Positions 532 to 42,152 of a stretch of 64,000 nucleotides of DNA are shown here, in pieces; position 1 is the stretch's first letter; every line of letters starts with the position of its first letter. Below the pieces are notes generated by a model. That model did no database searches and was not told the DNA's origin. It worked only from the letters and a program-made list of their open reading frames with translations. The position numbers were made by a program, and so were the translations under genes. The DNA comes from Armatimonadota bacterium (lineage in GTDB: Bacteria; Armatimonadota; HRBIN16): assembly GCA_963677485.1 (NCBI GenBank), contig OY781964.1, forward strand, positions 384,001 to 448,000, read 5' to 3'.

Positions 532-730
532 TCACTCGCCCCTGGCGCCGAAGCTTTGGTCGATCACTACGTAGTCAAACAGGTTCACCTGGCCATCGCC
601 GTTGACAAATGAGTAGACCGCAGTCTGATTCGGTATAACATTCGAAGCTTTGGCAGTAAGGAAGTGGGTGCAGGCCAGGGTGGTGCTCCATGGTGAGCGT
701 AGGTCAGTAGACAGTTGAAAACCAGCCAAA
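532..730 (-). pseudogene. Remnant of a secreted-protein C-terminus with a degenerate dockerin-like motif
   Basis: Frame ends VNGDGQVNLFDYVVIDQSFGARGE (dockerin/EF-hand-like). No credible start or N-terminal domain upstream. Confidence 0.5.
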
Positions 731-20900: not shown

Positions 20901-20969
20901 GTCGTCCTCCGAATGAGTAATATAGTTGTAGGTTCACCTATTCTAGTATGAATCCTGCATGATGGCAAC

Positions 20970-22730: not shown

Positions 22731-22747
22731 ATCAAACTCGTTTCTAG

Positions 22748-25057: not shown

Positions 25058-26407
25058 ATGAAACGAACTATTCTGTATGTCTTCATCGGGCTTCTTCTAT
25101 TGAGCGTCGTTGCGTGGGTCATTCAGCCAAAACCGAGCACAGATGGCAAAATACCGCTGGTTTGGTGTACCGACGATAACCCCGTAAGGCGGGAGCAATA
25201 CAGCCTCTTTAACAAACAAAACAAAGAGCTGAGCCTCAGCCTCGACCCCAAAACCACCATCGACAAGATCATCGTGCAGGCCATCGCTGGCGTAGGTCCC
25301 GACCTGTTCGACTGCCACACGATTGCTGAGTTCCCCATGTGCGTAAAGTCGGGAATCGCCTGGGATGTGACGGATGAGTTTAAAAAGGCCGGCATCGATG
25401 TGATGAAAGACCAGTGGCCTGTGATGCGCCCCTACTTCCTATATAAAGGCCGGGTATACGGATGCGCCACCAACACGTCGTCTAACGCGATCTGGTTCAA
25501 TAAAGATATTTTTGACAAATACCATGAGCCATACCCTAAAGGTGACTGGACGTGGGATCAATTCATCCCCGTAGCACAGCGTCTGACCATACGTGACAAG
25601 CGCGGTCGTGCCACACAGTTTGGGTTCATCTTCGATATCCCGCTGGTCTGGCAGCAGTTCATCTGGCAGTGGGGTGGCCGCGTGTTCAATGACGATGGTA
25701 CCAAATGCATCATGGATAGCCCGGAAGCCATCGCGGGGATTCAATTCATCCACGACCTGATCTACAAATACCGCGTATCCCCTAACCCGGTGGAGGAACA
25801 GGCAGCCAGTCAAGGCGGATGGGGCTCGGGAAGCATCACCTTGTTCGGTGCGAACCGATCTGCCATGGCGAACGGCGGCAGATGGTGGCTGTGCAGCCTG
25901 CGCGGTTACGAAGGTCTGCGGCTGGGAGCGGTGCAAAGCCCTTATAGCAAACACAAAATTTTCTACGGGTATGGTAAATCAACTCTGGTCAACAAGAACA
26001 GCCCGCACCGGAAAGAGGCTTTAAAATACCTGATCTACCTGAACAGCCAGGGGTATAACGAGCTGATCAACAGCACGGCTGACGGCCTGGCCCCGGTGAA
26101 AAAGTTCAGTTACACGGACAAATACCTGCACGATCCCAAATACCCAAACGAGGACTACAACGCGGTTTGGCGTGACATCATGAACTTCGCGAAACCCGAT
26201 GAAACCAGCCCATTCGTGCAGTTGAACATCGTGCAGCGGATCGTCACCAAACAGCTTGACCTGGTGAAGACCAACCAAAAGAGCAGCGCGGATGCCATGC
26301 GCACCGCGGCCAAGCAGATCAACGAAGAGATACAAAAGAGCCTGGCGGAAGACCCCGCCCTGAAAGCCCGCTATGACAAGCTGATCGCTGCGAGGGGGAG
26401 CCGCTGA
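25058..26407 (+). CDS. Carbohydrate ABC transporter substrate-binding protein
   Basis: N-terminal membrane anchor; GPDLF, WFNKDIFDK, WTWDQF, QWGG motifs of family 1 SBPs. Confidence 0.92.
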   Translation: MKRTILYVFIGLLLLSVVAWVIQPKPSTDGKIPLVWCTDDNPVRREQYSLFNKQNKELSLSLDPKTTIDKIIVQAIAGVGPDLFDCHTIAEFPMCVKSGIAWDVTDEFKKAGIDVMKDQWPVMRPYFLYKGRVYGCATNTSSNAIWFNKDIFDKYHEPYPKGDWTWDQFIPVAQRLTIRDKRGRATQFGFIFDIPLVWQQFIWQWGGRVFNDDGTKCIMDSPEAIAGIQFIHDLIYKYRVSPNPVEEQAASQGGWGSGSITLFGANRSAMANGGRWWLCSLRGYEGLRLGAVQSPYSKHKIFYGYGKSTLVNKNSPHRKEALKYLIYLNSQGYNELINSTADGLAPVKKFSYTDKYLHDPKYPNEDYNAVWRDIMNFAKPDETSPFVQLNIVQRIVTKQLDLVKTNQKSSADAMRTAAKQINEEIQKSLAEDPALKARYDKLIAARGSR

Positions 26408-26408
26408 C

Positions 26409-27365
26409 ATGAAACTACGCAGAAAAGAGCTGTTCACATCTCTGGCTTTTCTGATGCCCAACTTCCTGGGCTTCTTGATCTTCACCGCGGGGCCGGTGGT
26501 TTTTTCGCTCATCGTCGCCTTCACCAACTGGAATCTGCAGCAGACTGTGCCGTTCCGGTTCAACGGCCTGACCAACTTTAACCATCTATTCCATGACCCG
26601 CAGTTTTGGGTCTATTTCGCCAACACCATCTACTTCCTTCTCGGCATCCCAATCTCCATCGCGGGCAGCCTGATACTGGCCATCCTGCTCAGTCAGAAGC
26701 TGAAGGGTATCACCGCCTACCGCACGATGTTCTACCTGCCCAGCTTCACCGCGGGCGTGGCGCTCATGATCCTGTGGAAGAACCTCTACAACCCCGACTT
26801 CGGCCCCATCAACGCCGCGTTAAGCACCATCGCCAACACCTTCAACCTGCATTTCACCCCACCGCAGTGGTTGATTTCTACTCACAACATTGTGGGGCTT
26901 GACATCGAGCAGGTGCGGCTGGTGATCACCCAGTGGGGTATCGGCGCCCGTGACGCCATCATGATCATGGGCATCTGGACAGCAGTCGGCGGCAGCAACA
27001 TGCTGCTCTACCTGGCGGCTTTGACCAACATCCCGGAGGAGCTGGTAGAGGCCGCGCAGCTTGACGGTGCGGGCAAGTGGGGCATCTTCCGCAACGTCAC
27101 CTGGCCGCAACTCGCTCCCACCACCTTCTTTATCGTGGTGATGAGCTTCATTGGCGGTCTTCAAGGCGGATTTGAGCAGGCGAAAGTGATGACCGCCGGT
27201 GGTCCTGCCGGCACCACCACCACGATCGCCTACTACATCTACACCAAGGCATTTGAGGAGTTCCAGATCGGGTATGCCTCGGCTGTCTCCTGGGTGCTAT
27301 TTGCCATCATCTTCGCCATCACACTGGTGAACTGGAGAATTGGAAACAGGGAGGTGAACTACTAA
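26409..27365 (+). CDS. Carbohydrate ABC transporter permease 1
   Basis: Multiple TM helices; EAAQLDGA (EAA loop), GYASA. Confidence 0.95.
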   Translation: MKLRRKELFTSLAFLMPNFLGFLIFTAGPVVFSLIVAFTNWNLQQTVPFRFNGLTNFNHLFHDPQFWVYFANTIYFLLGIPISIAGSLILAILLSQKLKGITAYRTMFYLPSFTAGVALMILWKNLYNPDFGPINAALSTIANTFNLHFTPPQWLISTHNIVGLDIEQVRLVITQWGIGARDAIMIMGIWTAVGGSNMLLYLAALTNIPEELVEAAQLDGAGKWGIFRNVTWPQLAPTTFFIVVMSFIGGLQGGFEQAKVMTAGGPAGTTTTIAYYIYTKAFEEFQIGYASAVSWVLFAIIFAITLVNWRIGNREVNY

Positions 27366-28210
27366 TGGGCAGCAAACAACCAAAAGGGCACTGGAGCGGG
27401 CAAGGCAAACGGGCCGTGGGCAGCCATACCGTGCTGATGCTGGTGGCCATCACCATGCTGGTGCCGTTCCTGTGGATGGTATTCTCAAGCTTTAAGGCAC
27501 TGCCTGAGGTGGAGAGCATCAACCCGTTCCCCAGCAAGTGGCATCCCGAAAACTACCTGTCGGTGTTCCAGCAGATCCCGTTTGGCCGGTATTACTTCAA
27601 CTCGGTGTTCGTGGCCGCATGGGTCACCTTCTTGACTTGTATGACCAGCAGCCTGGCGGCGTTCGCCTTCTCGCGGATGCAGTGGAAGGGTCGTGACACC
27701 ATCTTCAAGCTCTATCTGGGCACGATGATGATCCCGGGCGTGGTCACCATGATCCCCAACTACACCTTGATGGTCAAGCTGCACATGCTGGATTCCTACA
27801 TAGGACTGATTGTACCCGCGGCTTTCTCGGCGTTTGGGGTTTTCCTGCTGAGGCAGTTCATGATGACCATCCCGCCGGCTCTGGATGAGGCGGCCACTCT
27901 GGACGGTGCCAGCAAGTGGCAGATTTTCAAGGAGATCATACTACCCTTGTCGCAGGCAGGCCTTGTCACCCTGGCAATATTCACTTTCCTGGGCACATAC
28001 GGCAGCTTCTACTGGCCGCTGATTCTCATAAAAAGCCAGCACCTGCGCACGCTGCCCATCGGTATGCTCTACTTCGACACGGTGTATGGCCGCCAAACCA
28101 ACCTGATCATGGCCGCCAGCGTGATGAACATCGTTCCGCTGATCATCCTGTTCATCAGCAGCCAGAAGTATATCGTGAAAGGCATCCAAATGGGCGCCGT
28201 CAAGGGGTAA
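27365..28210 (+). CDS. Carbohydrate ABC transporter permease 2
   Basis: EAATLDGA, WPLI, GAVKG C-terminus; TAATG overlap with the upstream gene. Confidence 0.95.
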   Translation: MGSKQPKGHWSGQGKRAVGSHTVLMLVAITMLVPFLWMVFSSFKALPEVESINPFPSKWHPENYLSVFQQIPFGRYYFNSVFVAAWVTFLTCMTSSLAAFAFSRMQWKGRDTIFKLYLGTMMIPGVVTMIPNYTLMVKLHMLDSYIGLIVPAAFSAFGVFLLRQFMMTIPPALDEAATLDGASKWQIFKEIILPLSQAGLVTLAIFTFLGTYGSFYWPLILIKSQHLRTLPIGMLYFDTVYGRQTNLIMAASVMNIVPLIILFISSQKYIVKGIQMGAVKG

Positions 28211-28244: not shown

Positions 28245-28473
28245 GTAGGGGCGTCCCTTGTGGGCGCCCACTAGCATTCCGCAAAGTTGTGAAAATGTGT
28301 CATTATTAATATGCAACACCCCTCGCGCCTAACAGCTTCGGCTGACTGCGAAATTCGAGGGGTTCTTTTTTATATCTGCCATCCCCTTCCGTGCCATCCG
28401 TCCCAACCGCGTAATCCGTGGTTCAGACATGCACGGGCGACCATGAAGGGCGGCCACGGGGGGCCGCCCCTAC
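28245..28473. repeat. Inverted pair of GTAG-type REP sequences (family C)
   Basis: GTAGGGGCGTCCCTTGTGGGCGCCC (28245-28269) and GGGCGGCCACGGGGGGCCGCCCCTAC (28448-28473), with a partial unit at 28435. Confidence 0.75.
28317..28371 (+). terminator. Terminator of the ABC operon
   Basis: ACCCCTCG...CGAGGGGT stem enclosing CAGC-TTCG-GCTG, followed by TCTTTTTT. Confidence 0.6.
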
Positions 28474-29441
28474 GGTCTTACCTTCGCATCCAGCTCCAGC
28501 TCGAACAGCAGCTCCTCACGGCAGATGTCGGCCTGCACGAACAGGCAGTGGCCCAACGGCACCTGGTTGATTACGCAATACCGCCTGAACAGCTCCGCAT
28601 ACTCAGGCCTTTTGCAGTAGGCGATCGCCCGTGTGGTGTGACACCAATCCATGCCGCGGGATGTCAGGATCGCCTTGACTACCTGCATGGTCAGTTCAAT
28701 CTGCTTCTGTGGGTCGTCTTGATGTGCACTCAACCCGTGCGGGTCGATGCTGGCGGTACCGGAGATCATCAACTGACGCTCCGAGTCTGTTTCGATCTCG
28801 ACCGCCCGGCTGAAACTGCTGCGGTAGTGCAGTGCCGAGTTTTGCAACGGCGACTCCACCGCACGTATCCGCACAGAGTTCTCCTTCGGAACGACAGCCA
28901 GTATCCCCGCCACACACGCTCTGCCAAGGTGGTTGCCCAGACCAATCCCTGTGCTGGCGGGCACCAGTCCGTCCAGCACGCCATGATCAACAAAATATTC
29001 CGTGCGGATGGCGTTGAACTCGTCATACCACACCAGTAAGTCATCAAGATAGAACCAAGTGCGCACCACGTCGCGCCAACTCATCCCCGCTTGCTGTAGT
29101 GCCAGCTCCGCGTTCTCAAACAGTTGTTGGGTCTGCAACCCACGCGGTGCCGCCAGGTCGCCACACACACTCCATAACCAAGCCACACGGGCGGTTGGCG
29201 TTTCAACCCAGCATCCCTGTCGTCGGCCGTTCAACTTTATGGGATGCAGTTCGGCACCAGAATTAGTAAAACTCTGTGCACCGCCATCGCAGCCTGGAGC
29301 CGAACCATTTGGACGTAATGGCATCAGATTCGGATCCATAGATGACGGATGGTCAGAAAAACTAAGACCGCCCACCGACTGCTTTTCAACCAGATCGTCC
29401 GATCCTAAGCACGGTATCTTCATGTTCTCTTCCAGACTCAC
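28470..29441 (-). CDS. Rid/YjgF-fold protein of the FkbO/Hyg5 (chorismatase-like) or endoribonuclease L-PSP type
   Basis: VVRTWFYL, PASTGIG, SFSRA, ISGTASID, ADICREELLFELE; GTG start overlaps the upstream TGA. Confidence 0.75.
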   Translation of the reverse strand: MSLEENMKIPCLGSDDLVEKQSVGGLSFSDHPSSMDPNLMPLRPNGSAPGCDGGAQSFTNSGAELHPIKLNGRRQGCWVETPTARVAWLWSVCGDLAAPRGLQTQQLFENAELALQQAGMSWRDVVRTWFYLDDLLVWYDEFNAIRTEYFVDHGVLDGLVPASTGIGLGNHLGRACVAGILAVVPKENSVRIRAVESPLQNSALHYRSSFSRAVEIETDSERQLMISGTASIDPHGLSAHQDDPQKQIELTMQVVKAILTSRGMDWCHTTRAIAYCKRPEYAELFRRYCVINQVPLGHCLFVQADICREELLFELELDAKVRP

Positions 29442-31339
29442 AGCGACAGCACATACTCCGCAAGATCACCCAACTGCTGCTTCGAGAGATTCGAGGTCAT
29501 GCCGTGCTTATCACCCTTGTTGTGCGTGGTCAGCACCGACATCATATCAGCCGCACTGCCGTCATTCAGATACGGAGCGGTACGCCACACCTCTACCAGC
29601 GAGCTGGTATCGAACTTAAGATTAGCCTCGTTATACACCCCCATGCCCACATTGTATGCCTTTAAATTTGTGTAATACGGGCCAGAATGACAGTTCGCGC
29701 AACCAGCCTGCGTAAACAGCTTTTTGCCCCGCAACGCGCTGGCGGAGAGTTTTCCATGCTGCAGGTAAGGGCTCTTCACGGGCTGCATGCCGGTAAGATA
29801 ACTGTCAATGGCCTTTGCGTCCGATTCGGGACGGCTGGCAAACTGTATGAACTTCATCCCAGCCCGGACGGCAGTTTCCGCTTTATCTCGCACAGCCAGA
29901 CTCATCACCGGCGGGGTCTTGTGACTAAGCAGCATACTGCGTGTATTTTTGGGGTTGCCCATACCATCGTTCATCAGATCCCAGTTAAGGCTGTCAGCTC
30001 GCGAATCCGGGTGACAACTGGCACAACTCTGCCAGTTCTCATAGCACATCGTGCCGTCGTTGAACAGCATCTCGCCGCGGCGTGACTGGCTAATGACAGT
30101 CTGCTTCACCAGCGGCCAGCGGCCAGCCAACGCAGACAGGTCGAGGCGATAGATCTCGATATCCTGCGTAAAGGTATTAGCAACAAACGCATTCTGGCCA
30201 ACCACGCAGATCACACGGGGGCCGTTGCCTTTGAGTGTCACCCGTTGACGAAGCCCATTCAAAAAGGCCAGATCATCCGGTACCCCGTTGGGGTCAGCGC
30301 ATCGTTCCAACTTACGATGAAGGGCGATACGGTCGATCACGGTCAGCTCCTGCGCACCCGCGGAACTCACCAGCAGCTTCTTGCCATCGGCCGTGACCGA
30401 AACAGCCCACGGGTTTGCGGATCCTCTGTTCACATCATCCAGCAGCACAGTGTTAAGATACTGGCGTTTGGCGATGTCTAGCACGCTCAGTGCGTTGGTG
30501 TTCATCCAGCCGCGGTCCAGTTGGGTTGTGGGCATGCCGTAACGCGCAAGGATGTGCGTAATGTAGGCGAATTTGCCATCCGGCGAGATGGCCAGACCAC
30601 GAACCCCACTGCTGCCATTCGGCAACAGCACGTTCTTAATGACCCTCGGGCTACGGAGGTCTACCAATGTCACTCCGGCCGCCACATAGTTGGCATCAGC
30701 AGCCTGGGTGGGCAGATGGTTCGCTACCACGGCCGTACGACCATCTGGCGTCACGCCGACCGCAACTGGCTCGCGCAAGCACTTGATCCGAGCCACCAGC
30801 TTCGACTTGCTCAGATCAACCAGGGCCAGCTCATTCTGGAACCTCAGACAGACCGCCGCCATCTTGCCGTTCGCGTAGAGTGCGGGCGACATCGGTGTGT
30901 GCCCGAGCAGCACAGAGGCGATTCTCTTCCCTGAACGAGTGTCATAGGTGTTAAGCACGCCATCGGATTCACCCTCCGCCACATACAGCTTCTGGCTGTT
31001 CTGGCTAAGGACGATCCCATGCGCCGGCTGAGAGGTAGTGATCATCCGAAGCTGCTTGTGGCTCTGGCTGTTCCAGACCAGCAGCTCCGAGCTGCGGTCA
31101 GACGCCACATAGAGCAGTTTGCCGTCGGGCGAAGCCAACATGGCCGATACTGAAAACAGCCGTCCCGCATCAACCGCTTGAGCCTGCATCAGCAAAGCGG
31201 TTGTAGTCGCAACCATCACAGTGACCACGATGATTGTGGCACGTATAATCCGGTTCTTTGCCATGCCAGTCTGCGGCTTGACGATATGTATGAGCATTTC
31301 TTTCATCTGTTGAAATCTAGTTTTCTTCATGTCTACCAT
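29438..31339 (-). CDS. YVTN-type beta-propeller fused to a di-heme cytochrome c peroxidase-like domain (hydrazine synthase beta/gamma-like architecture)
   Basis: Signal/anchor; propeller repeats (SPDGKLLYVA, TPDGRTAVVAN, SPDGKFAYIT); CASCH (30011-30025), CANCH (29687-29701), TAPYLNDGS. Confidence 0.85.
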   Translation of the reverse strand: MVDMKKTRFQQMKEMLIHIVKPQTGMAKNRIIRATIIVVTVMVATTTALLMQAQAVDAGRLFSVSAMLASPDGKLLYVASDRSSELLVWNSQSHKQLRMITTSQPAHGIVLSQNSQKLYVAEGESDGVLNTYDTRSGKRIASVLLGHTPMSPALYANGKMAAVCLRFQNELALVDLSKSKLVARIKCLREPVAVGVTPDGRTAVVANHLPTQAADANYVAAGVTLVDLRSPRVIKNVLLPNGSSGVRGLAISPDGKFAYITHILARYGMPTTQLDRGWMNTNALSVLDIAKRQYLNTVLLDDVNRGSANPWAVSVTADGKKLLVSSAGAQELTVIDRIALHRKLERCADPNGVPDDLAFLNGLRQRVTLKGNGPRVICVVGQNAFVANTFTQDIEIYRLDLSALAGRWPLVKQTVISQSRRGEMLFNDGTMCYENWQSCASCHPDSRADSLNWDLMNDGMGNPKNTRSMLLSHKTPPVMSLAVRDKAETAVRAGMKFIQFASRPESDAKAIDSYLTGMQPVKSPYLQHGKLSASALRGKKLFTQAGCANCHSGPYYTNLKAYNVGMGVYNEANLKFDTSSLVEVWRTAPYLNDGSAADMMSVLTTHNKGDKHGMTSNLSKQQLGDLAEYVLSL

Positions 31340-34300
31340 TGGTATTTCATCTTACACCATGGCATGGCGGCCTCAAGCGTCGCTTTTTGCTCCGCGGTAA
31401 GGTCGGTTCCCGCTGTGTTCAACTCCACCAACCCTTTAAGCTGCGTGACCACAGGAAAAATGCGGTCATATGTCAGTTCTGGGTTTGCCCCGATGGTCAG
31501 CCACTTCATCGACTGCATGGACAACAACGGTGTGATGTCGGTCAGGTGGTTACCCTCCAGCGTCAGGTAGTTCATCTTTGTCATTTTGCTGATTGGGGTC
31601 AGGTCGCGAATTTCAGCGTTGTGAGCGTCCAGATAGCTCAGGCTCACACACCCCTCAAGCGGACGCAGGTCAGTAACCCCAGTCACATTGATTGCGATGC
31701 CCTCAAGCTGCGGAAGCTGTCGACAGACGCTGATGTCGGTGACCGGGCAATCGTAGAAATAGGCCTTCTTCAGTTTCTTGCACGCTCCCATGGGTGAGAT
31801 GTCCTTCAAGCCCGGGTTGCTGTAAGCCCACAGGTGCTCGAGGTTGGGCAGCATACGCACGAATTCGATGTTAGTCAGCGCGACATCCGTAAACCCGATG
31901 TGCGTGATGTTCGTCAGCTTTTTTAGGAAAGAAAAGTCGGTAAAGTGGTTCTTGCCTTTACGGGCCTTCTTCTGCTCCTCTGACATAAATGGGTCGTTGG
32001 ATGCGTTCAGGTCTACCAACGACGTCAGCTCAGACAGTGGAGATAGGTCAGTCAGCAGGTTATCGCTGACATTCAGCTTCTGCAGATTCTCAAACTGCGC
32101 CAGATCGCCGATATCTGTAAGCTGTTGGCCCACTAGGTTCAGTTCCACAATCGACAGCACGTCTTCTCTGGTCACAATGTCCTTACCGAGTTGCTCTTGC
32201 ACTACACGTAAAATGGTCGGATTCATACTGATCGATACCCCTTCATCCTTCAACGCGGTCGGCATGTCGTTGCCGAATACCTCCACCTCAGTCAGAGCAC
32301 ACCAACCGACCGGCTCCGTCTGCACGAGGTTGTTGATCCGCACATAGCTAGTCTGTCGCTTGGCGAATTTGAACTCCTGAGCTGCCGCATCGGCCTTCAA
32401 CGTGATCGGCACCCTGCTGCCATCCGAAAACTCCAGAACAGCGCTATCCCACACCTTGTCATGCGGGAAGTCGGCCCGCACGGTGATCCTCACGCTGTCC
32501 ACCGACACACTTCGTCCGAACTCCACCTTCCACCAGCCGTCTTTCACCTGCTCAGGTCCCCAGCTTTGGAACGGCCAGTTGCCATGACCTGCATTCTGTG
32601 TGAAGCCGTCAATGGCATTCCTGGCAGCAAATATCGGCTCATTGCGGCACTCGCTGTTGCTGCTGGCGTGAGGATAACTGCCCGAAACTCCGCGCACATC
32701 GAAGGGGTTCAGGGCCAGATTTCGCCTGGCACTCACCTCTTGTTGTGTCGCCGCACGCGCCATGATGGTGTGCGCCGCCGCTTGTATCAGGCTGGGCGGA
32801 TAGGCTTGAGCACTCCGCACCGGCAGCGGTACAACAACCACGCCTTCGGGGTTATAGACCAAACTCTCAGGCGCATCCTTTCCGAACCGAACCCAGATAA
32901 ATTTCGGGCCGTAGATCAGCACCTGGTCACCAGGACGATAGGCATGACTGATGACAAGACTGCCAGGTTTGCTGTAGTCATCGATGGTTTGCAGGCCGGT
33001 TTGGTCGGCACTTAGATATTCGATCCGCACAGCATTGACGTCATTGATGGGCTTTTTACCGATCGAAAGCAGGGTGTCGGCGATGTTTCGCTGCTCCAGA
33101 GCCTCACCACGCATCCGCTTGGCCAGGAAGTGCATATATTTCTCGGTCTCATCGTCGTTCCAGGTATTGGCCTCAATGTAGTCGCCGCTGAAGGGCACCA
33201 GCAGATCGATCCAGCAAGCCAGCGTATCACGCTCATCCTGGGTGAGTTTGACACCCCCATGTCCTCGGTCCAGCTTGGCGAGCAGCTTGCTGGTCGCCGC
33301 ACCAGCCGAGTAAGGCGGCAGCATTGACGGAACGCTCTGAGGACTGATCCAGTTCACCAGTTCCGTAGACCGGCCTCTCTGCGTGAGTGCCATATAACTA
33401 TCGGTAAACCGCCGCACTTGGTCACCTTCTACGGGTAGCCCAAGCAGGCTGAACGGATGGCCCGACTTAGGGGGCTCTTTAATGGCATACAGCCCCACAT
33501 CGATATACTGCCCGCCGATGGTTTGATGGCAGCTCACAGCCAGCGTATTGGCGCCCTGCTTGAGGGCCGAGAAAGCATCGTTCACCGCAGCGACCGCCTT
33601 GTAGTTCGTGATGAATCCCTGAGCCGCAAAAATCTGCTTGCCGTTCAACACCACGCGCACATCTTCGTCAAAACTTAAATAGACCACTAGCCGCTTCATC
33701 TCATCCGATTTGTCCACGTTGAACTGACGCCGCATCCAAATGTCCGGAGTGTTCCACGGACTGCCCAGCCCGCTCTCGATATTGTTGGTGCCGAAGCCGG
33801 CCTTCGCTTTGGCCCATTTCGAAGCATCAAAGTTTTCGGCTTCCCAACCCGCACCGGGATTGTTGGTAGTATACGACCACTCCGAGCCAATCGTTGAAAG
33901 GCTGATGGCATTATTACGGTTGAAGTTATCGACCTCATCGGAATGCAATGCTGCTCCGCGGTTGTCATGACACCGTGTGCAGTTCCGGTCCATAATAGGT
34001 TGGACATCCTTGTTGAAGCTAAATCCATGAACGGGTCGGCGGAGGAATGGCTTCAACTTCTCCACCCCCTGCTTCATCGCCAGACTGCGTCCACTGTATC
34101 GAGCTGGTGCAGAGTTTTTGGATTCATGGCAGCCTGTGCAGGAGAACTTCTCTCCCGGCTGGAGGGTGGTCCAGCTGCGCATGGTCTGCACGACCTCGCC
34201 TTTGGCATCCACGGCCTGGAAGTAAACCGGCCTACGCGCGGGCACCTCGAACATGGCACTGCCATCCTCCTGCACGGTTGCCTCGCCCAGCACGATCTTC

Positions 34301-35991
34301 GGATCCCAACTGGTATTGTCCACCCCGATGGGCGTGCTCACCAGTGCACCGCCCGCGGGACCATTATTACTGTTACTCTTCACGCCCGCCGCGCGGTAGT
34401 CCAAAGCTACCACCCGCAGCTTCTTCACTGTGCCCCGCTTGATGTCCTTCAAACCAGGCCCTGAATAGACATCGTGGAGGTAGTAACTGCCCGTGGTCTT
34501 GGTGTAGTCTACGGCAGATGGCCTCACCAGAGGTGTTTTTCGCTTCATGACCGGAACCGGCTGATTGCTGGATATTGAAGCATCCCAACTTAGCAGCTCG
34601 CGGTTCCCGTTCACGTCCACTAGATAGATTCCATAAGCGTTAGGCGCCGGTGATGCCCAGCCCTTCGGCAGATAACTCACCAGGAAATGCTGATCGTCAA
34701 CCGCATAGGGGTATTGGAACAACTCGCCATCCTGACCATAGGCATCGATTCGGTCCGCAGGTGTGTTCCGCACCGGGGCTATGAGCTGCACCCCCTCATT
34801 TTCCTGCCGACCTTTTGCCGGATCGATAATCGCCAGCTTTCCACCCTGCCGCGAATGATGCCCGGTGAGTATTGCGATCACCTTGCCGCTGTCACCCAGG
34901 CCTCGGGCCTGGATGATGGTGGTGGGGAACCAGGAGTTGTTGCCGTAGTATTCGGTCTGCTCCGTACCATCAGCATTCATCTGGAACAGCGGCTGCGGGA
35001 AAAGCTGACCGCGGTCGTTGTATTCCCAGCGGGTGTAAGTAATTCGCCCATCAGGCAGCACGGAGGGGTAGTTATCGTGAACTTGGTCAAAGGTCAGCCG
35101 ACGCATCAGTTTCCCGTCTGCGTTACAAGTATAAAGGTTGCTGACTTCCGTCCACCAGCAATCCACCGTCTGCACCGCGCGTGAGCTATTGAATACAATG
35201 TCGCCGCTGGGCAGATAGGTCCCCTCATAGTCAGCAAATCCCAATCCGTCTGTCAGTTGCCGCATCTTACTGGAGCTCAGGTTCCATTCATAAAGGTGAT
35301 AATCGTCGGTCACATCGGACTGTTTCATAGAAAACAGCAGTTTGGTGCCGTCGTAGGAGATGTTCGGGTTTCGGATCACACCGCCCGTCTTGAACAGGGT
35401 TTGCTCTTTGCCATACAGACCATCCATCTTCAGTAGGCACAACTCGCCCCCAGGCATAAAGTTGCGTTCGGCTTGTGCGTCGGACTGTCCTTCGGTATAG
35501 GCGTAGTGCGAGCCACCCATGTTGTAGTGCTTCGCGAAGGCGATCGTAGTGATGCCGCCTTTTATCATGGGCATTAGCCGTTTGGCCCGACGCAGCTCAC
35601 ACGCCTTGATGTATAGGCTCAGGCGTTGCTCCGAGTTGGCGCACTTCGACAGTGCAGCGGAGATCGGCTTCGCCTCGCCGCCTAGCTGAGCGATCACCGA
35701 GACCATCATCGCCTGCTCAGTTTTGACACCATCGGAAGCACTCAGCAAGGCCTCCGGTATACCCTTCATATCCTGCATCACCCAGTCGCACAGAATCGGG
35801 TATCGGCCGGCCAGCCGGTTCCAGTCGGCTCCTGTCAGACGCATGGCCACTACGTCCTTGGGCCAGGCGATTTTCTGGGCGGCCATGCTCATTGGTGCAG
35901 ATTGGGCTATCGCCTGCAGTGCTAACAGAGTTAATAATGCCGCGAGCCAAAAGGCGGTTATGGGATTATGATTTTTATGAAAGTGGCGCAA
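31333..35991 (-). CDS. Hydrazine synthase alpha subunit-related secreted protein with two c-hemes, two carbohydrate-binding-like domains and C-terminal LRRs
   Basis: Signal peptide; TolB-like propeller (DGRITYTRWEY, MNADGT..EYYGNN); HZS-alpha middle domain (LGEATVQEDGSAMFEVPA..PVYFQAVD...VQTMRSW..LQPGE..SCTGCHE); CTRCH; internalin-like LRRs. Confidence 0.85.
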   Translation of the reverse strand: MRHFHKNHNPITAFWLAALLTLLALQAIAQSAPMSMAAQKIAWPKDVVAMRLTGADWNRLAGRYPILCDWVMQDMKGIPEALLSASDGVKTEQAMMVSVIAQLGGEAKPISAALSKCANSEQRLSLYIKACELRRAKRLMPMIKGGITTIAFAKHYNMGGSHYAYTEGQSDAQAERNFMPGGELCLLKMDGLYGKEQTLFKTGGVIRNPNISYDGTKLLFSMKQSDVTDDYHLYEWNLSSSKMRQLTDGLGFADYEGTYLPSGDIVFNSSRAVQTVDCWWTEVSNLYTCNADGKLMRRLTFDQVHDNYPSVLPDGRITYTRWEYNDRGQLFPQPLFQMNADGTEQTEYYGNNSWFPTTIIQARGLGDSGKVIAILTGHHSRQGGKLAIIDPAKGRQENEGVQLIAPVRNTPADRIDAYGQDGELFQYPYAVDDQHFLVSYLPKGWASPAPNAYGIYLVDVNGNRELLSWDASISSNQPVPVMKRKTPLVRPSAVDYTKTTGSYYLHDVYSGPGLKDIKRGTVKKLRVVALDYRAAGVKSNSNNGPAGGALVSTPIGVDNTSWDPKIVLGEATVQEDGSAMFEVPARRPVYFQAVDAKGEVVQTMRSWTTLQPGEKFSCTGCHESKNSAPARYSGRSLAMKQGVEKLKPFLRRPVHGFSFNKDVQPIMDRNCTRCHDNRGAALHSDEVDNFNRNNAISLSTIGSEWSYTTNNPGAGWEAENFDASKWAKAKAGFGTNNIESGLGSPWNTPDIWMRRQFNVDKSDEMKRLVVYLSFDEDVRVVLNGKQIFAAQGFITNYKAVAAVNDAFSALKQGANTLAVSCHQTIGGQYIDVGLYAIKEPPKSGHPFSLLGLPVEGDQVRRFTDSYMALTQRGRSTELVNWISPQSVPSMLPPYSAGAATSKLLAKLDRGHGGVKLTQDERDTLACWIDLLVPFSGDYIEANTWNDDETEKYMHFLAKRMRGEALEQRNIADTLLSIGKKPINDVNAVRIEYLSADQTGLQTIDDYSKPGSLVISHAYRPGDQVLIYGPKFIWVRFGKDAPESLVYNPEGVVVVPLPVRSAQAYPPSLIQAAAHTIMARAATQQEVSARRNLALNPFDVRGVSGSYPHASSNSECRNEPIFAARNAIDGFTQNAGHGNWPFQSWGPEQVKDGWWKVEFGRSVSVDSVRITVRADFPHDKVWDSAVLEFSDGSRVPITLKADAAAQEFKFAKRQTSYVRINNLVQTEPVGWCALTEVEVFGNDMPTALKDEGVSISMNPTILRVVQEQLGKDIVTREDVLSIVELNLVGQQLTDIGDLAQFENLQKLNVSDNLLTDLSPLSELTSLVDLNASNDPFMSEEQKKARKGKNHFTDFSFLKKLTNITHIGFTDVALTNIEFVRMLPNLEHLWAYSNPGLKDISPMGACKKLKKAYFYDCPVTDISVCRQLPQLEGIAINVTGVTDLRPLEGCVSLSYLDAHNAEIRDLTPISKMTKMNYLTLEGNHLTDITPLLSMQSMKWLTIGANPELTYDRIFPVVTQLKGLVELNTAGTDLTAEQKATLEAAMPWCKMKYQW

Positions 35992-36123
35992 GTTGTGAAG
36001 GCCTCCAGCGGATGATGGGCAAATATGCCTAACAGACTATTCTGCGTGAGACCTTGGTTATCCTGCATGGGGATCGGAAACATCGAGGCAAAGGTATGTA
36101 GTTCCACGCCATATTCATCTAGC

Positions 36124-36288
36124 GTTGCCTAAGTCCGGGGCGGTCTTGCCCGACGTTAGCGGCTGCAGAAAGCATAAGACCGCGCCGGTCTGGCGGACAG
36201 CCATAGAGATTGGTGTCGGGAACAAGACCGGCGCGGTCAATAGTCAGCAGGCTTTATGGGCGTACTGACAGACCGCCCCGGACATAGG
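36124..36288. repeat. Nested inverted-repeat element, family A copy 3
   Basis: CTAAGTCCGGGGCGGTCT...AGACCGCGCCGGTCT...AGACCGGCGCGGTC...CAGACCGCCCCGGACATAG, ending a few nt from the fumC stop. Confidence 0.85.
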
Positions 36289-37847: not shown

Positions 37848-40800
37848 TTATGCTGACGATCCGTGGAGAGCCTGCCGTATCATTTCAGATAACCCACTCA
37901 TTGTAAACGGCTTTTGGATGAACGAAACACCATCTTCCAGCTTTCCGTGGTGGGCGATCACATCGGAAGTATACCCTGACATAAACATGCGTTTGACGCG
38001 AGGATACTGTAGCTTGATGTGCCCAGCTAGATCGCGTCCGTTCATCTCCGGCATCACGACATCCGTCAACAACAAGTCGATTTTGCCTGTGTAGGCCGCC
38101 GCTGCTTCAATGGCTTTCAGTGGGGATTGTGCCGCGACCACGGTGTATCCCAGCCGCTCAAGCATGATCCGTGTCATACGCAAAATGCTAGGCTCATCTT
38201 CCACGAGCAGGATGGTCTCATGGCCACCGATAATCTGCTCATGTTGATCACCGTTGCCAGAAACCACATCATCACCCGCATATCGTGGCAAATAGATCGT
38301 AAAAGTGGTGCCCTGCCCCAGTTTACTCTTAACCTCGATGAGCCCGCCGTTTTGTTTGACCGCACCGTATACCGTTGAAAGGCCCAGGCCAGTTCCCTCC
38401 CCCACGCCCTTTGTGGTAAAAAATGGCTCGAATACACGTTCGATTGTTGGCTTGTCCATGCCCTGACCTGTATCGGTTACCGACAACCAGACATAGTCAC
38501 CCGGTGATAAGCCTGAATGCAGCGGGCTATTGCTCTCGTCGATCGTGCTGATGCCAGTCTTGATTGTGATGGTGCCCACATCCGTGATGGCATCACGTGC
38601 ATTCACACATAGATTAGCCAGTATTTGGTCTATCTGTGACGGATCTGCTTTCACGAACCAAAGGTGAGGATATGGTAAAAACTGGAGTGTTACCGATTCG
38701 CCTACAAGCCGCTCCAGCATCTTCGACATATTCGCGATGGTCACATTGAGATCCAGCACTTTGGGTTGTATCGTCTGCTTCCGTGCGAAAGCCAGTAACT
38801 GGCGCGTTAGATCTGCAGAACGGTTAGCCGCTGACCGGATTTCGGCCAGGTCATCATATAGTGGATGGCTGGGGTATAACTGCTCAATGGCCATCTGTGT
38901 ATGACCCAATATGACCCCCAGCATGTTATTGAAGTCGTGCGCAACCCCGCCAGCCAGTCTTCCAACAGATTCCATCTTTAGAGCATGGCTTAGTTTCTCT
39001 TCTAGTTTCGTCTTTTCTTCTTCAGACTTTTTCCGTGCGGTCACATCGGAGATGAGTGATGCAAACTGGCCGACTGCAGGCTGGAATGCGGTCACCTCAA
39101 AATACTTATCAAGAGCCGCTGAGTAGTTTTCAAATGTGATTGGTTCGCCTGTTAAAGCTACCTGTCCGTATGTATCTATCCAGTATTGTTCCACAGTGGG
39201 TACCACATCCAGCACGGTCCTGCCGATGATTTGACCAGCGTTAAAGCCTGTTAAGCGTTCGTATGCTGGATTGACTGCGATGAAGCGGTAGTCGACAGGC
39301 TTTCCAGATTCATTACAGATGATCTCGTGCAGTGCCAAACCTGTCTGCATCTGCTGGAACAACGTCTTGTAGTCTTCTTCTGCCCGTCGTTGAGCAGTAA
39401 TGTCGCGGTTTAGTGACAGCACCGACCGGACCTGGCCTTCTGCATCAAACTCTGGCACCAGTCTGCAATTATAAACATGAGTGCTATTGTGATTCTCAAA
39501 CACGAACTCTGTCTCAAATGGGGAGCCATTTACAAAAACGCGATCAATAGCGCTTTCCCAGAACGAACACTGTTCAGCTAGAAACCCCATTTCTCTGGGT
39601 GTTTTACCAATGAAAGCCGATACAGGCAGATGAACTGAGGTCGTGATATTGTTTGATATATATAGGTGTCGGCATTGTCTGTCAAACCTGATAACAATAT
39701 CGGGTAAACCCTCGACTAATACCCTGTGTGAAGCTTCACTTTCACGCAAGGCCTCTTCCACTCGCTTTCGTTCCGATATATCACGTATTGTGACCAACAC
39801 ACGAGCCTGTCCGCCTATCTCGGAACTTCGAATGGTGATATCGGACCAGAAAAGCTCGCCGGATTTCTTCCGTGACAGCCACTCAAAGGATGGTGTTTTA
39901 CCCGACAGCGCCTGTTGTATATACGGCGTGACATCAGCTTGTGTATAATTCGGAGTTCCTGCACTCAATGAGCCGCTCTCAAGAGAACAAGCCTCAGCCT
40001 TCGATGCATACCCAAACAACTCCAGCATCGGTTGATTCACATCAACAATCGCCCAGGTCTCAGCATCACGGATTAGTATCGCATCGGCGGTGGCGTTAAA
40101 TATCTCACGGTATTTACGTTCACTCTCCTGCAGGGCATCTTCTACCCTCTTCTGCTCGGTGATATCCTGGGCATAGCCCGACAGCGAGACCACCGCGCCG
40201 TTCTCGTCTTTGACACACTCTCCGCCTTCCGCCCGAATCACATGCACCGAATGATCAGGCCAGATCACACGGAAGATTGCGGGTGCTGTCAAACCTGTCG
40301 CAATGACCGCCTCGTTCGCACTTGCCACGATGTTGCGATCGTCAGGATGTACCGACCGGTTAATCACATCAGCTAGATCACCCGAAAAACTCTCTTTGCT
40401 CAGCCCATGCACATGATACATACCTTCAGACCAATCCAGCTTGTTCGTCTTTGGATACCATGTCCAGCTACCCATCTTGGCGACCTTCTGAGCTTGATTC
40501 AAGTTCGCTTCAGATCGGACTAAAGCAGATTCAGCCCTGTTACGAGCTGTTAAATCAAGACCATAGGCATAGTTGATGTCACCCAGTGTGATGTATCCCC
40601 ACAAGACATCACGGGTGGTGCCGTCCCTGCAGGTCACCACCGCCTTCATAGGTTCTATCGGCTGCTGGGTGTTGATCGCCTTTTCTACACGCCTGTTCCA
40701 CTCATCGGCCATAGACTGCCGGTAATCAGGGTCCGGGTAAGCCAGCGGCCACCACTCCGCGGTTGACGGGATGTCTTCTTGTGTGTATCCAAACATAGCC

Positions 40801-41966: not shown

Positions 41967-42152
41967 ACGATCCTCCATCTGTCTAATATCGGTATGTATA
42001 AGTTCATGAACCTTGACCCGTGTCAAATAAGCTCGCTATTGTACACACTTTACCCTGTATGGATGCCTTTGTATACATCACACCGAAAATCAGCCGGTGA
42101 TCACCTGTATCATGACTAAAATCTATCTACCAATCGGTGATGGACTGCTTGT

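Follow-up and report, generated by a model that had tools for sequence, protein, structure and literature searches.

Hydrazine synthase-like di-haem proteins encoded beside a chorismatase-like protein in a predicted operon of an Armatimonadota bacterium

Introduction

The closest characterised relative of the two exported proteins described here is the hydrazine synthase (HZS) of Kuenenia stuttgartiensis (PDB 5C2V/5C2W), whose alpha subunit combines a propeller, a middle domain and two c-type haems, whose beta subunit is a seven-bladed propeller, and whose gamma domain carries two haems. Co-located non-anammox genes for alpha and for a fused beta-gamma protein were published in 2025 with their function unassigned (Hagglund et al., PMC12758564), and "hzs-like" non-anammox homologues likewise appear in PMC10732223. 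The available text of PMC12758564 places its clade I to IV pairs in heterotrophic hosts, finds key HZS residues not conserved, and judges these homologues not to be true hydrazine synthases. That text mentions neither a third, chorismatase-like gene nor any expansion of alpha copy number. An earlier sequence-only reading of the DNA analysed here knew of no established function for HZS-alpha-like domains outside anammox bacteria, which still holds for the available parts of both papers even though homologues are now in print. Our literature search found no prior description of a chorismatase-like gene directly after beta-gamma, of genome-wide alpha/beta-gamma co-occurrence, or of an alpha expansion to as many as 35 places per genome versus one or two beta-gamma genes.

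Results

The window, by which we mean the whole stretch of 64,000 nucleotides analysed, holds three minus-strand genes, and their overlaps were read directly from the DNA (Table 1). The gene 2 ATG lies within ...CAATGGTAG and gives a 7-base overlap with the gene 1 stop; a later in-frame Met is an alternative start, which would leave a gap of up to approximately 70 bases between genes 1 and 2. The gene 2 TGA and the gene 3 GTG share GTGA, a 4-base overlap. GGAGG stands 10 bases upstream of the TTG start of gene 1, and a terminator-like hairpin of the fumarase gene, found by consensus scan at 36191-36177, sets that upstream gene apart from gene 1. On the best reading, genes 1 to 3 (28470-35991, minus) form one co-transcribed operon.

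Table 1. Coordinates of the genes, domains and motifs in the window
Feature	Position	Strand	Basis or remark
Three GH29 genes	19605-24442	minus	other transcription units than genes 1 to 3
Sugar ABC binding protein and two permeases	25058-28210	plus	other transcription units than genes 1 to 3
Gene 3, cytoplasmic Rid-fold, chorismatase-like protein	28470-29441	minus	323-aa ORF, GTG start; profiles, solved-chain matches, invariant residues
Catalytic-type Glu314 of gene 3	28500-28502	minus	alignment
Gene 2, beta-gamma-fusion-like protein with signal or anchor helix	29438-31339	minus	633-aa ORF; profiles, 5c2v matches
Di-haem CCP-like/HZS-gamma-like domain, residues 415-633	29441-30097	minus	profiles, 5c2v_C match
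CANCH, residues 547-551	29687-29701	minus	motif reading
CASCH, residues 439-443	30011-30025	minus	motif reading
Seven-bladed YVTN propeller, residues ~62-410	30110-31156	minus	model
Gene 1, HZS-alpha-like di-haem protein, "type A" alpha	31333-35991	minus	1552-aa ORF, TTG start; Pfam, NCBIfam, fold match
Leucine-rich repeats (LRR), residues ~1260-1535	31387-32214	minus	Pfam LRR_4, matches to solved LRR proteins
Discoidin/DUF7402 domain, residues 1110-1239	32275-32664	minus	Pfam
Galactose-binding-like beta-sandwich insert, residues ~727-837	33481-33813	minus	model strands, Foldseek, NCBIfam
Haem alpha-II motif CTRCH, residues 671-675	33967-33981	minus	motif reading and alignments
Haem alpha-I motif CTGCH, residues 618-622	34126-34140	minus	motif reading and alignments
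HZS_alpha middle domain, residues 520-623	34123-34434	minus	Pfam PF18582; aligned to 5c2v_A 450-562
TolB/PD40-type beta-propeller, residues ~149-505	34477-35547	minus	TolB-type profile matches, model, fold match
N-terminal helical domain, residues 31-144	35560-35901	minus	AlphaFold2 model, helices 6-114 (model numbering, i.e., protein numbering minus 30)
Putative signal peptide, residues 1-30	35902-35991	minus	inferred by reading translation and upstream DNA
Upstream intergenic region	35992-36191	minus	hairpin, then presumed operon promoter region; consensus scans only

The domain content that the sequence-only reading had assigned to these genes was recovered throughout, with HZS_alpha, CCP_MauG and FkbO/Rid-type models all matching. 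For gene 1, the best solved fold match was 5c2v_A (E 4e-20, 688 aligned columns), followed by TolB (5e-10), and the same HZS chain was matched by sequence at E 4.3e-11 with both haem motifs aligned. Its middle domain matched Pfam HZS_alpha at E 3.5e-32 (111.3 bits; cut-off, 26.6). The haem alpha-I motif and the E623 and K625 that follow it were invariant in 60 of 60 type-A and 50 of 50 cross-type sequences, and the propeller Cys C278, located in DCWW, was invariant across all alpha types in the 50-sequence cross-type alignment. The galactose-binding-like insert is absent from most homologues (a gap in the A4 consensus); it gave Foldseek matches to GH2 N-terminal domains at ranks 33 to 46, and residues 699 to 821 gave a rhamnosidase-like NCBIfam match. 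Further downstream, DUF7402 scored 29.3 bits (cut-off, 27), two F5/8C models scored slightly below their cut-offs, and LRR_4 matched at E 2.9e-20.

Gene 2 matched the NCBIfam models hydrazine_BC (E 2.5e-36), hydrazine_beta (2.4e-29) and hydrazine_gamma (3.1e-20) and the solved chains 5c2v_B (E 9.4e-24) and 5c2v_C (E 4.7e-17), and its top fold match was 5c2v_B (TMt 0.87). Its C-terminal domain of approximately 220 residues with two CxxCH motifs is common to the CCP/MauG/MbnH/RoxA superfamily, and Pfam CCP_MauG (28 bits; cut-off, 25.6) and Cytochrom_C were both above cut-offs, although the CCP_MauG match spans only positions 7 to 63 of 149. Weak NCBIfam matches were obtained to MbnH (2.8e-11), MauG-like (2.4e-09) and MauG (5.4e-07), whereas no solved CCP or MauG chain was matched at E 0.001. 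Unlike in that superfamily, the domain is fused to a propeller and its second-haem region aligns with HZS gamma. The profile E-values, and the matches to 5C2V in sequence and in fold, are far stronger than chance would produce. Judged by sequence comparison, gene 1 demonstrably encodes a homologue of HZS alpha, and gene 2 one of HZS beta and gamma, so the claim that this locus contains the parts of HZS, with beta and gamma fused, was borne out.

The locus also differs from Kuenenia HZS. Identity in the fold alignments is 16 to 22%; beta and gamma are fused and alpha comes first in gene order; alpha carries the additional N-terminal helical domain, sugar-binding-like insert, discoidin domain and LRRs; and the operon includes a chorismatase-like gene. 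HZS gamma-Cys165 falls in a 7-residue deletion of gene 2, and gamma-His144 aligns with Ser480, a position that is Trp in clades I to III in the available text of PMC12758564. According to the same text, an FG-GAP/CRTAC1 gene separates or adjoins the two genes of the pair in clades I to III, whereas genes 1 and 2 have none in either place, and clade I beta-gamma proteins have up to ten CxxCH motifs compared to the two found here. The genome of the window has a cytochrome c assembly gene and, in further contrast to the Kuenenia system, an oxygen reductase (a haem-copper oxidase); no anammox partner genes were found, and a search of this genome for multi-haem HAO/HDH-type matches gave none, with the control genomes equally silent.

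The GH29 and sugar ABC transporter genes are present as the sequence-only reading had described, but they are separate transcription units, the transporter genes being convergent with gene 3. That reading had proposed a glycan or glycoconjugate as the target and had asked whether the triplet and its CAZyme context are conserved. The triplet does recur (see below), whereas the CAZyme/sugar neighbourhood is not conserved: of the 112 ORFs that flank beta-gamma homologues, at most 4 belonged to any one family, and of the 105 that flank window-type alpha homologues, at most 3 did. None of these 112 and 105 ORFs was an N-cycle gene. The proposed glycan link survives only in the lectin-like domains fused to alpha, which were present on approximately 40 of 120 window-type alpha homologues among the matches listed (hand count, Pfam). 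F5/8C was present on 7 of 50 alpha-likes encoded beside beta-gamma, and the accessory domains found on alphas comprised F5/8C, DUF7402, LamG, NPCBM and FGE/PvdO-like domains.

In the phylum to which the window belongs, 151 genomes were sampled; 20 had HZS_alpha, 24 had beta-gamma and 18 had both, counts that overstate independence because genomes within one phylum are kin. Two genomes had alpha without beta-gamma, and the six with beta-gamma only gave distant matches (27 to 31% identity). Of 59 loci with sufficient flank, 42 had an alpha-like gene immediately upstream of beta-gamma; of 55 in which both flanks were available, 18 had the alpha/beta-gamma/chorismatase-like triplet. Two natural alpha-beta-gamma fusion ORFs were also found (P0276 and one in L163). 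Window-type alpha genes are mostly solitary: among 48 metagenome loci, only 4 had beta-gamma immediately downstream of alpha or fused to it, and among 33 loci, 6 had beta-gamma at any position. Genomes in the phylum sample had 1 to 26 alpha places versus 1 to 3 beta-gamma matches, and three genomes of other phyla had 6, 35 and 26 versus 2, 2 and 2. The alpha-likes beside beta-gamma fell into at least 11 clusters, every one with two or three CxxCH motifs. The analyses show that the two families co-occur in genomes, that alpha has diversified into many paralogue types at 1 to 35 places per genome, and that beta-gamma, with one or two genes, is highly conserved.

Truncated alpha (residues 518 to 945) and beta-gamma (62 to 633), modelled without haem, were co-folded in three runs with three controls. 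The median ipSAE was 0.73, a mark that 58 of 80 solved complexes and 2 of 110 mismatched pairs also attained, and the best control gave 0.00. The partner had a pLDDT of 85 or more; run-to-run contact agreement was at least 0%, and of the three runs one gave 0.00. The interface anticipated between the two proteins was thus predicted, although this success may reflect memory of the solved HZS complex. In the predicted contact, as in Kuenenia HZS, the alpha haem-I region faces the loop of beta together with the haem-I region of gamma. Predicted-interface residues of beta-gamma were more conserved than the remainder (0.83 versus 0.69; equalled by 3 of 10,000 random sets), and they include the propeller loop ...RGWMNTN (276 to 282), which consists of invariant columns. 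Conversely, alpha interface residues showed no extra conservation (0.54 versus 0.54 elsewhere).

Gene 3 matched Pfam Ribonuc_L-PSP (E 5.6e-14), the NCBIfam FkbO/Hyg5 chorismatase model (E 2e-12) and solved chains of FkbO (4bps, E 6.3e-06) and Hyg5 (5ag3, E 7.3e-05). It shares the multi-domain Rid fold of FkbO and Hyg5 (PDB 4BPS and 5AG3; Hyg5, EC 4.1.3.45): its E314 corresponds in the alignment to Glu-334, which is essential in Hyg5, and G165, G228 and C307 align with the Gly/Gly/Cys positions described as the signature of Hyg5-type chorismatases (PMC7170507), all four residues being invariant in 24 sequences. It differs in scoring 47 bits against a family cut-off of 325, in the first domain, which is mostly lost in the window's lineage, and in adjoining genes for exported haem proteins rather than a natural-product cluster. 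Neither gene 3 nor its 23 aligned relatives had a signal peptide, in agreement with the cytoplasmic location assigned earlier. The coupling of gene 3 to gene 2 extends beyond the window: a chorismatase-like gene was directly downstream of beta-gamma in 36 of 74 loci, and the overlap was exactly 4 bases in six loci as well as in the window, demonstrating that the two are often translationally coupled. Of the 18 genomes holding alpha and beta-gamma, 14 have the gene and 4 lack it, so it is not obligatory. Ten of the 151 genomes have a member of the family but neither alpha nor beta-gamma; its neighbours there are either DUF1501 with a PPC-domain protein or a sugar kinase with an aminotransferase.

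Discussion

The simplest reading of genes 1 and 2 is a secreted four-haem pair. We put at about even probability the fuller proposal that the operon, one of a very large non-anammox family, encodes a cytoplasmic accessory enzyme together with an HZS-like four-haem oxidoreductase that is secreted, and makes no hydrazine. On the best reading this haem oxidoreductase would be modular and would work in the periplasm or at the surface, pairing a constant beta-gamma with exchangeable, substrate-specific alphas. Beta-gamma would be the constant redox core, in which haem gamma-II may serve as an electron relay and haem gamma-I may act on O2, H2O2, an N-oxide or another small co-substrate. Its most conserved loops would dock onto the haem alpha-I region of any alpha present, alpha being the putative catalytic subunit. 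In the window, the galactose-binding-like, discoidin and LRR domains could anchor alpha on a substrate or surface that bears glycans. The product of gene 3 may act in the cytoplasm and split a compound of the enol-pyruvyl-ether or enamine type, the predicted reaction being chorismate to hydroxybenzoate and pyruvate, and this could supply or remove a small molecule linked to the haem chemistry.

We consider it unlikely, though deserving of weight, that beta-gamma is instead a transient MauG/MbnH-like maturase that oxidatively installs a protein-derived cofactor or cross-link in each alpha, one candidate site being the invariant propeller Cys in DCWW. The ratio of as many as 35 alpha places to one or two beta-gamma genes, the solitary state of most window-type alpha genes, and the weak MbnH and MauG matches of the di-haem domain would all suit such an enzyme, as would the Cys itself, which lies beside two Trp in a strongly conserved alpha stretch of low model confidence. 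However, the two natural fusions argue for lasting 1:1 contact, gene 2 is matched by HZS gamma and, at E 0.001, by no solved CCP or MauG chain, and gene 3 is left without a role. Less probable again, and in our view doubtful, is a small nitrogen-oxide enzyme in which NO or nitrite is reduced at haem gamma-I and the resulting hydroxylamine, or a relative of it, is tunnelled to haem alpha-I, for detoxification or N assimilation and with no N-N bond made. HZS does precisely such chemistry, and the predicted interface resembles its tunnel; against this stand the lost gamma-Cys165 and gamma-His144, scores far below the HZS equivalog cut-offs, the lack of N-cycle genes among the flanking ORFs, and dozens of alphas with lectin-like, LRR and FGE/PvdO-like domains, which are hard to reconcile with one small inorganic substrate. 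The N-chemistry that the sequence-only reading had entertained is not favoured, because the HZS-specific residues testable here are absent.

There is a small chance that beta-gamma is a plain periplasmic peroxidase reducing H2O2 like bacterial CCP, with alpha as a mere di-haem electron donor; the Pfam CCP_MauG and Cytochrom_C matches and a host that respires oxygen agree with this, but the CCP_MauG match is partial, and the propellers, the many alphas, their binding domains and the coupled gene 3 would all go unexplained. A true hydrazine synthase, and with it a hidden anammox-type metabolism, shares only architecture and homology with this locus and is close to refuted by the gamma-Cys165 deletion, the haem-copper oxidase, the like conclusion in the available text of PMC12758564 for other non-anammox homologues, and NCBIfam scores far below cut-offs (alpha, 65 versus 800; beta-gamma, 125 versus 1250; beta, 103 versus 560; gamma, 72 versus 625).

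Organization of the three-gene unit

Gene 1 (HZS-alpha-like, hereafter alpha), gene 2 (resembling a beta-gamma fusion of hydrazine synthase, HZS) and gene 3 (a Rid-fold, chorismatase-like protein) occupy one stretch of the minus strand. The ATG of gene 2 lies within the final codons of gene 1, giving an overlap of 7 bases, the GTG of gene 3 shares 4 bases with the TGA of gene 2 (GTGA), and no other gene is present between the three ORFs. The ORFs, the profile matches and the positions of the CxxCH motifs confirm the initial observation, made from the sequence alone, of three overlapping minus-strand genes encoding these parts. Gene 1 starts with a TTG codon 10 bases 3' of a GGAGG. Approximately 185 bases 5' of gene 1 is a terminator-like hairpin belonging to the upstream fumarase gene, and gene 3 is convergent with a sugar ABC transporter operon on the plus strand, the two ending face to face, so that the triplet looks like its own transcription unit. 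The GH29 fucosidase genes and the ABC transporter are neighbors rather than operon partners. In the window's own genome, genes 1, 2 and 3 are each present exactly once, and a gene for cytochrome c assembly is also present. Among the other genes of the window (Table), the one encoding DAHP synthase is probably a housekeeping gene whose closeness to gene 3 is coincidental.

Table. Positions and composition of features in the window and in surveyed relatives (L, homologue locus; P, protein)
Feature	Position	Strand	Size or composition
Genes 1, 2 and 3 (three ORFs)	28470-35991	minus	1552, 633 and 323 codons
Gene 1, N-terminal parts in order			signal peptide, helical domain, TolB-type propeller, HZS_alpha middle domain
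Gene 1, haem motifs	residues 618-622 and 671-675		CxxCH
Gene 1, after the haem motifs			inserted galactose-binding-like sandwich (absent from most relatives), then helical end of conserved core
Gene 1, C-terminal parts			further beta-sandwich, discoidin/DUF7402 domain, leucine-rich repeats
Most conserved alpha stretch (DCWWTE ... YGNNSWFP)	residues ~275-354 of the gene 1 protein (P0001); window ~34930-35169		
Gene 2, parts in order			signal or anchor helix, seven-bladed YVTN propeller, di-haem domain
Gene 2, haem motifs (di-haem domain)	residues 439-443 and 547-551		CxxCH
DAHP synthase gene	18406-19428	minus	first shikimate-pathway step toward chorismate; ~9 kb from gene 3
Three tandem GH29 alpha-L-fucosidase genes	19605-24442	minus	C-terminal binding modules on two of the three: one CBM6/35-like, one F5/8 type C
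Two very large, adjoining hybrid histidine kinase genes	37848-42026 and 42153-45668	minus	one with PocR sensor domain and several PAS, the other with NMT1/THI5-like periplasmic binding domain
Alpha type with C-terminal FGE-sulfatase-fold domain	L018:2812-6345, L017:3815-7219, L033:5964-9299		these and 7 more of the 50 aligned alpha-likes (alignment A6)
Alpha and beta-gamma as one polypeptide	L163:9722-14167 and P0276		1481 and 1605 aa, two single ORFs

Relationship to hydrazine synthase

Hydrazine synthase has, to our knowledge, long been regarded as an enzyme nearly without relatives. When gene 2 was compared by sequence with the solved structures, it matched HZS beta (9.4e-24) and HZS gamma (4.7e-17), and gene 1 matched HZS alpha (4.3e-11) in an alignment that takes in both haem motifs. 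The window pair repeats the architecture of HZS, in which alpha combines a propeller, a middle domain and a pair of c-haems, beta is a propeller and gamma contains two haems. AlphaFold2 models were built from our own alignments for alpha residues 31-1100 (pLDDT 79.4) and for beta-gamma (pLDDT 77.0). The top Foldseek match of the alpha model was the alpha chain of the solved Kuenenia HZS (5c2v_A; E 4e-20, 688 columns), with TolB second (5e-10), and that of the beta-gamma model was the HZS beta chain (5c2v_B; E 1.2e-26, TMt 0.87). The likeness to Kuenenia HZS put forward in the sequence-only reading is borne out at the level of predicted structure, and the three profiles it had named were all matched: HZS_alpha (Pfam E 3.5e-32), CCP_MauG (PF03150; 28 versus a gathering score of 25.6 bits, over profile positions 7-63 of 149 only) and Rid/YjgF (PF01042; 52.6 versus 27.3 bits).

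That reading had also proposed a four-haem complex of the two proteins, and this is supported by a predicted interface. Cofolding of alpha residues 518-945 with beta-gamma residues 62-633 gave a median score of 0.73, versus 0.00 for the best control; 58 of 80 solved complexes attained that mark, as against 2 of 110 mismatched pairs. The pLDDT of the partner was at least 85, contact agreement between runs was at least 0%, and the score of one run out of three was 0.00. Because the HZS complex has already been solved, the pass may reflect likeness to it rather than prove binding. The predicted interface is made up of an invariant beta loop (...RGWMNTN), the part of gamma around NWD...NDGMGNPK and, on alpha, the loop that follows haem alpha-I. 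The interface residues of beta-gamma were more conserved than the remainder of the protein (a level reached by 3 of 10,000 random sets), and in the same test those of alpha had no excess conservation over the remainder.

Relatives of HZS outside anammox bacteria have been described. In the sections of Hagglund et al. 2025 (PMC12758564) used here, distant homologues with colocated alpha and fused beta-gamma genes are sorted into four clades, the key HZS residues are concluded not to be conserved in them, and no function is assigned; a part of Dalcin Martins et al. 2023 (PMC10732223) suggests that the "hzs-like" genes make up a wider family of enzymes. What was noticed from the sequence therefore belongs at its core, as far as these excerpts go, to a group that has been described and never characterized. 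Like the pairs in PMC12758564, the window alpha and fused beta-gamma genes are colocated, here adjacent and overlapping. According to the same sections, an FG-GAP/CRTAC1 gene lies between or beside the pair in clades I to III, and beta-gamma has extra N-terminal haem motifs in clades I and III. Unlike these clades, the window has no FG-GAP/CRTAC1 gene between its three ORFs, and its beta-gamma has two CxxCH motifs only, so the pair is compatible with clade IV as described there. No mention of a chorismatase-like partner of an HZS-like pair was found in the literature searched, PMC12758564 included.

Genomic partnership of the three genes

The three proteins had at least 6,781, 4,901 and 2,933 matches, respectively, at 45 to 60% identity across phyla, and the core of the family was 50 to 60% identical across phyla. 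Members were found in Planctomycetota, Verrucomicrobiota, Kiritimatiellia, Lentisphaerota, Hydrogenedentota, Armatimonadota and other groups. We surveyed 80 genome loci drawn from at least 594 confirmed beta-gamma stretches. An alpha-like gene was directly upstream of beta-gamma in 42 of the 59 loci with enough flank, often as two or three distinct alpha paralogues ahead of a single beta-gamma, and a chorismatase-like gene was directly downstream in 36 of 74. The 4-base overlap of the GTGA type between beta-gamma and gene 3 recurred in six loci. The full triplet, for which the sequence-only reading had suggested a survey of gene neighborhoods, was recovered in 18 of 55 loci.

Among 151 sampled genomes of the window's phylum, HZS_alpha was present in 20 and beta-gamma in 24; both were found together in 18, alpha alone in 2, and the six genomes with beta-gamma alone held distant matches. 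The chorismatase-like protein was encoded in 24 of the 151, comprising 14 of the 18 genomes with both partners and 10 with neither. Alpha had 1 to 26 genomic match positions per genome. In three genomes of other phyla, picked for holding a beta-gamma locus, there were 6, 35 and 26 alpha positions, two beta-gamma positions each, and 1, 0 and 1 chorismatase-like positions. These surveys demonstrate that alpha and beta-gamma are genomic partners, that one conserved beta-gamma is accompanied by many diversified alphas, and that beta-gamma is frequently coupled translationally to the chorismatase-like gene. Within the window's own family, the pair was present in two genera (two of two genomes each, besides the window's genome) and was not found in any of nine genomes of a third genus; this patchiness suggests that the module has been gained or lost as a unit.

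Diversity of the alpha proteins and their surroundings

The alpha-like proteins adjoining beta-gamma formed at least 11 clusters at 42% identity, with two or three CxxCH motifs in each. Across 50 of them, both haem motifs and one propeller cysteine (C278 in the window protein) were invariant, and accessory domains were of several kinds: FGE-sulfatase-like in 10, F5/8C in 7, LamG in 2 and NPCBM in 1. The FGE-sulfatase-like domains resemble PvdO more than true FGE, and for the FGE-fold type the best NCBIfam match of the C-terminal domain was the periplasmic dihydropyoverdine dehydrogenase PvdO. FGE has two cysteines at the corresponding site, and the one such alpha domain inspected has a single cysteine. 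Judged from sequence, this large alpha type joins a haem protein to an oxidase fold of the PvdO/FGE kind. The most conserved alpha stretch, modeled by AlphaFold2 with low confidence (pLDDT below 50 at model residues 289-324), may hold a cofactor, contact a haem or form part of an interface. The alpha type of gene 1 itself was mostly solitary across 80 metagenome loci, with beta-gamma fused to it or directly downstream in 4 of 48, and present at any position of the locus in 6 of 33. The two single ORFs that join alpha to beta-gamma are natural fusions, or else they arose from a one-base error of assembly where the two genes usually overlap by 4 bases.

The sequence-only reading had assigned the complex to a glycan or glycoconjugate. 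The complex is supported, as described above; the glycan link is weak, and a conserved sugar context was not found. Pfam families were tallied in the 112 nearest complete ORFs (at least 150 aa, of 437 candidates) at the 80 beta-gamma loci and in the 105 nearest ORFs (of 351) at 80 loci of the window-type alpha, and neither a conserved CAZyme or sugar context nor any other conserved neighbor family was detected, no family exceeding 4 of 112 or 3 of 105 flanking ORFs, respectively. These tallies are rough because ORF picking was greedy by length and sometimes took antisense ORFs, beta-gamma itself being kept in 75 of 81 loci. Sporadic operon genes at the surveyed loci encoded thioredoxin-like proteins (4 loci), IclR regulators (4 loci) and sulfatases (9).

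Gene 3 and its family

The gene 3 protein has no signal peptide. It matched two models, that of Rid in Pfam (E 5.6e-14) and that of the FkbO/Hyg5 chorismatases (E 2e-12), and it aligned with FkbO (4BPS) and Hyg5 (5AG3) across its last 200 residues. The dual assignment to the chorismatase and Rid families was upheld in part: gene 3 passed the Rid/YjgF gathering score and fell below the FkbO/Hyg5 cutoff (TIGR04444; 47 versus 325 bits). In the alignment to 5ag3_A, residues E314, G165, G228 and C307 pair with Hyg5 E334, G173, G240 and C327, the Hyg5 numbering of the last three being a hand count, and none of the four varies among 24 members of the family. In the part of PMC7170507 used here, Glu-334 of Hyg5 is the acid essential for protonation of the methylene of the enolpyruvyl group, and Gly/Gly/Cys is the signature of Hyg5-type (CH-II) chorismatases. 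Chorismate is the obvious first candidate for the substrate of gene 3. Most of the first of three Rid-like domains has been lost in the window's lineage, and the short form was found in five related sequences. Where members of this family occur without the haem pair, the gene either follows genes for a DUF1501 protein and a PPC-domain protein of ~765 aa (loci L082 and L085, and probably L086 and L087) or shares an operon with genes for a class-III aminotransferase and a sugar kinase of the FGGY family (locus L084).

Proposed function and alternatives

We propose a general model, whose chances we judge to be about even, in which a constant beta-gamma redox core works with a substrate-specific alpha and a cytoplasmic helper. 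Beta-gamma would be the common core and would dock on alpha at the side of haem alpha-I. Alpha would be the substrate-specific subunit, brought to a glycan-bearing target by its binding domains, which in the window are galactose-binding-like, discoidin and LRR domains. The gene 3 enzyme, in the cytoplasm, would make or remove a small enol-ether or enamine compound tied to the reaction.

It is also conceivable, if unlikely, that beta-gamma is a MauG-like maturase with the alphas as its clients; gene 2, which has the two CxxCH motifs of the PF03150 di-haem class, matched no CCP or MauG chain at an E value of 0.001 or less in a sequence search of all solved structures. A small N-oxide enzyme seems rather doubtful. 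That the pair is a plain peroxidase is very improbable; the CCP/MauG profile match covers only part of the profile.

The last alternative is a true hydrazine synthase. All four NCBIfam equivalog cutoffs were unmet: hydrazine_alpha (65 versus 800 bits), hydrazine_beta (102.6 versus 560), hydrazine_gamma (72.4 versus 625) and the hydrazine_BC fusion (125.1 versus 1250). The HAO-type multi-haem profile PF13447 had no match in the window's genome, nor in any control genome, and the genome-wide count of haem motifs by a DNA pattern, which matches all frames, was uninformative. In HZS alpha, haem-I is ligated by Tyr591 and the Zn site consists of His587 and Cys303; the alignment of gene 1 to 5c2v_A ends two residues past the CxxCH motif, and the invariant propeller cysteine C278 may be the counterpart of Cys303. 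According to the consulted sections of PMC12758564, HZS gamma has a third covalent haem link through Cys165, and His144 is near haem gamma-I. In the phmmer alignment to the gamma chain (5c2v_C), gamma-Cys165 (chain index 126) is among 7 residues deleted from the gene 2 protein and gamma-His144 (chain index 105) pairs with Ser480 of gene 2, this mapping being a hand count on the printed alignment and all such residue comparisons resting on alignments to solved chains. The equivalog scores far under the cutoffs, the deletion of Cys165, the serine in place of His144 and a haem-copper oxidase in the window's genome led us to reject this alternative, whose probability we take to be close to nil.

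Significance

The general model, with its constant beta-gamma and substrate-specific alphas, may be extended, as a quite unlikely and bolder idea, to a widespread, unrecognized extracellular haem-enzyme platform of which this operon, with one alpha, one beta-gamma and one helper, would be the minimal form. One beta-gamma "engine" would activate an oxidant for dozens of substrate-specific alphas (with lectin-like, LRR or PvdO/FGE-like domains), performing oxidative chemistry on glycans or other polymers as a haem-based counterpart to the copper LPMOs, and the coupled Hyg5-type chorismatase would make hydroxybenzoate from chorismate as a redox mediator or cosubstrate. The family is abundant, conserved and biochemically untouched, and its chemistry is probably one of general use to heterotrophic bacteria; the investment in alpha reaches 35 paralogues in some genomes. 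The present results also warn against taking "hzs-like" matches in metagenomes for a sign of anammox potential. Because genes 1, 2 and 3 are all single-copy, the window is the simplest case in which to study the system. Among 14 control genomes, Bacteroides thetaiotaomicron alone matched both HZS_alpha (over the cutoff) and the FkbO/Hyg5 model (under the cutoff), and it also matched hydrazine_BC. This species appears to carry the same families, and the matches suggest a genetically tractable host for direct study.
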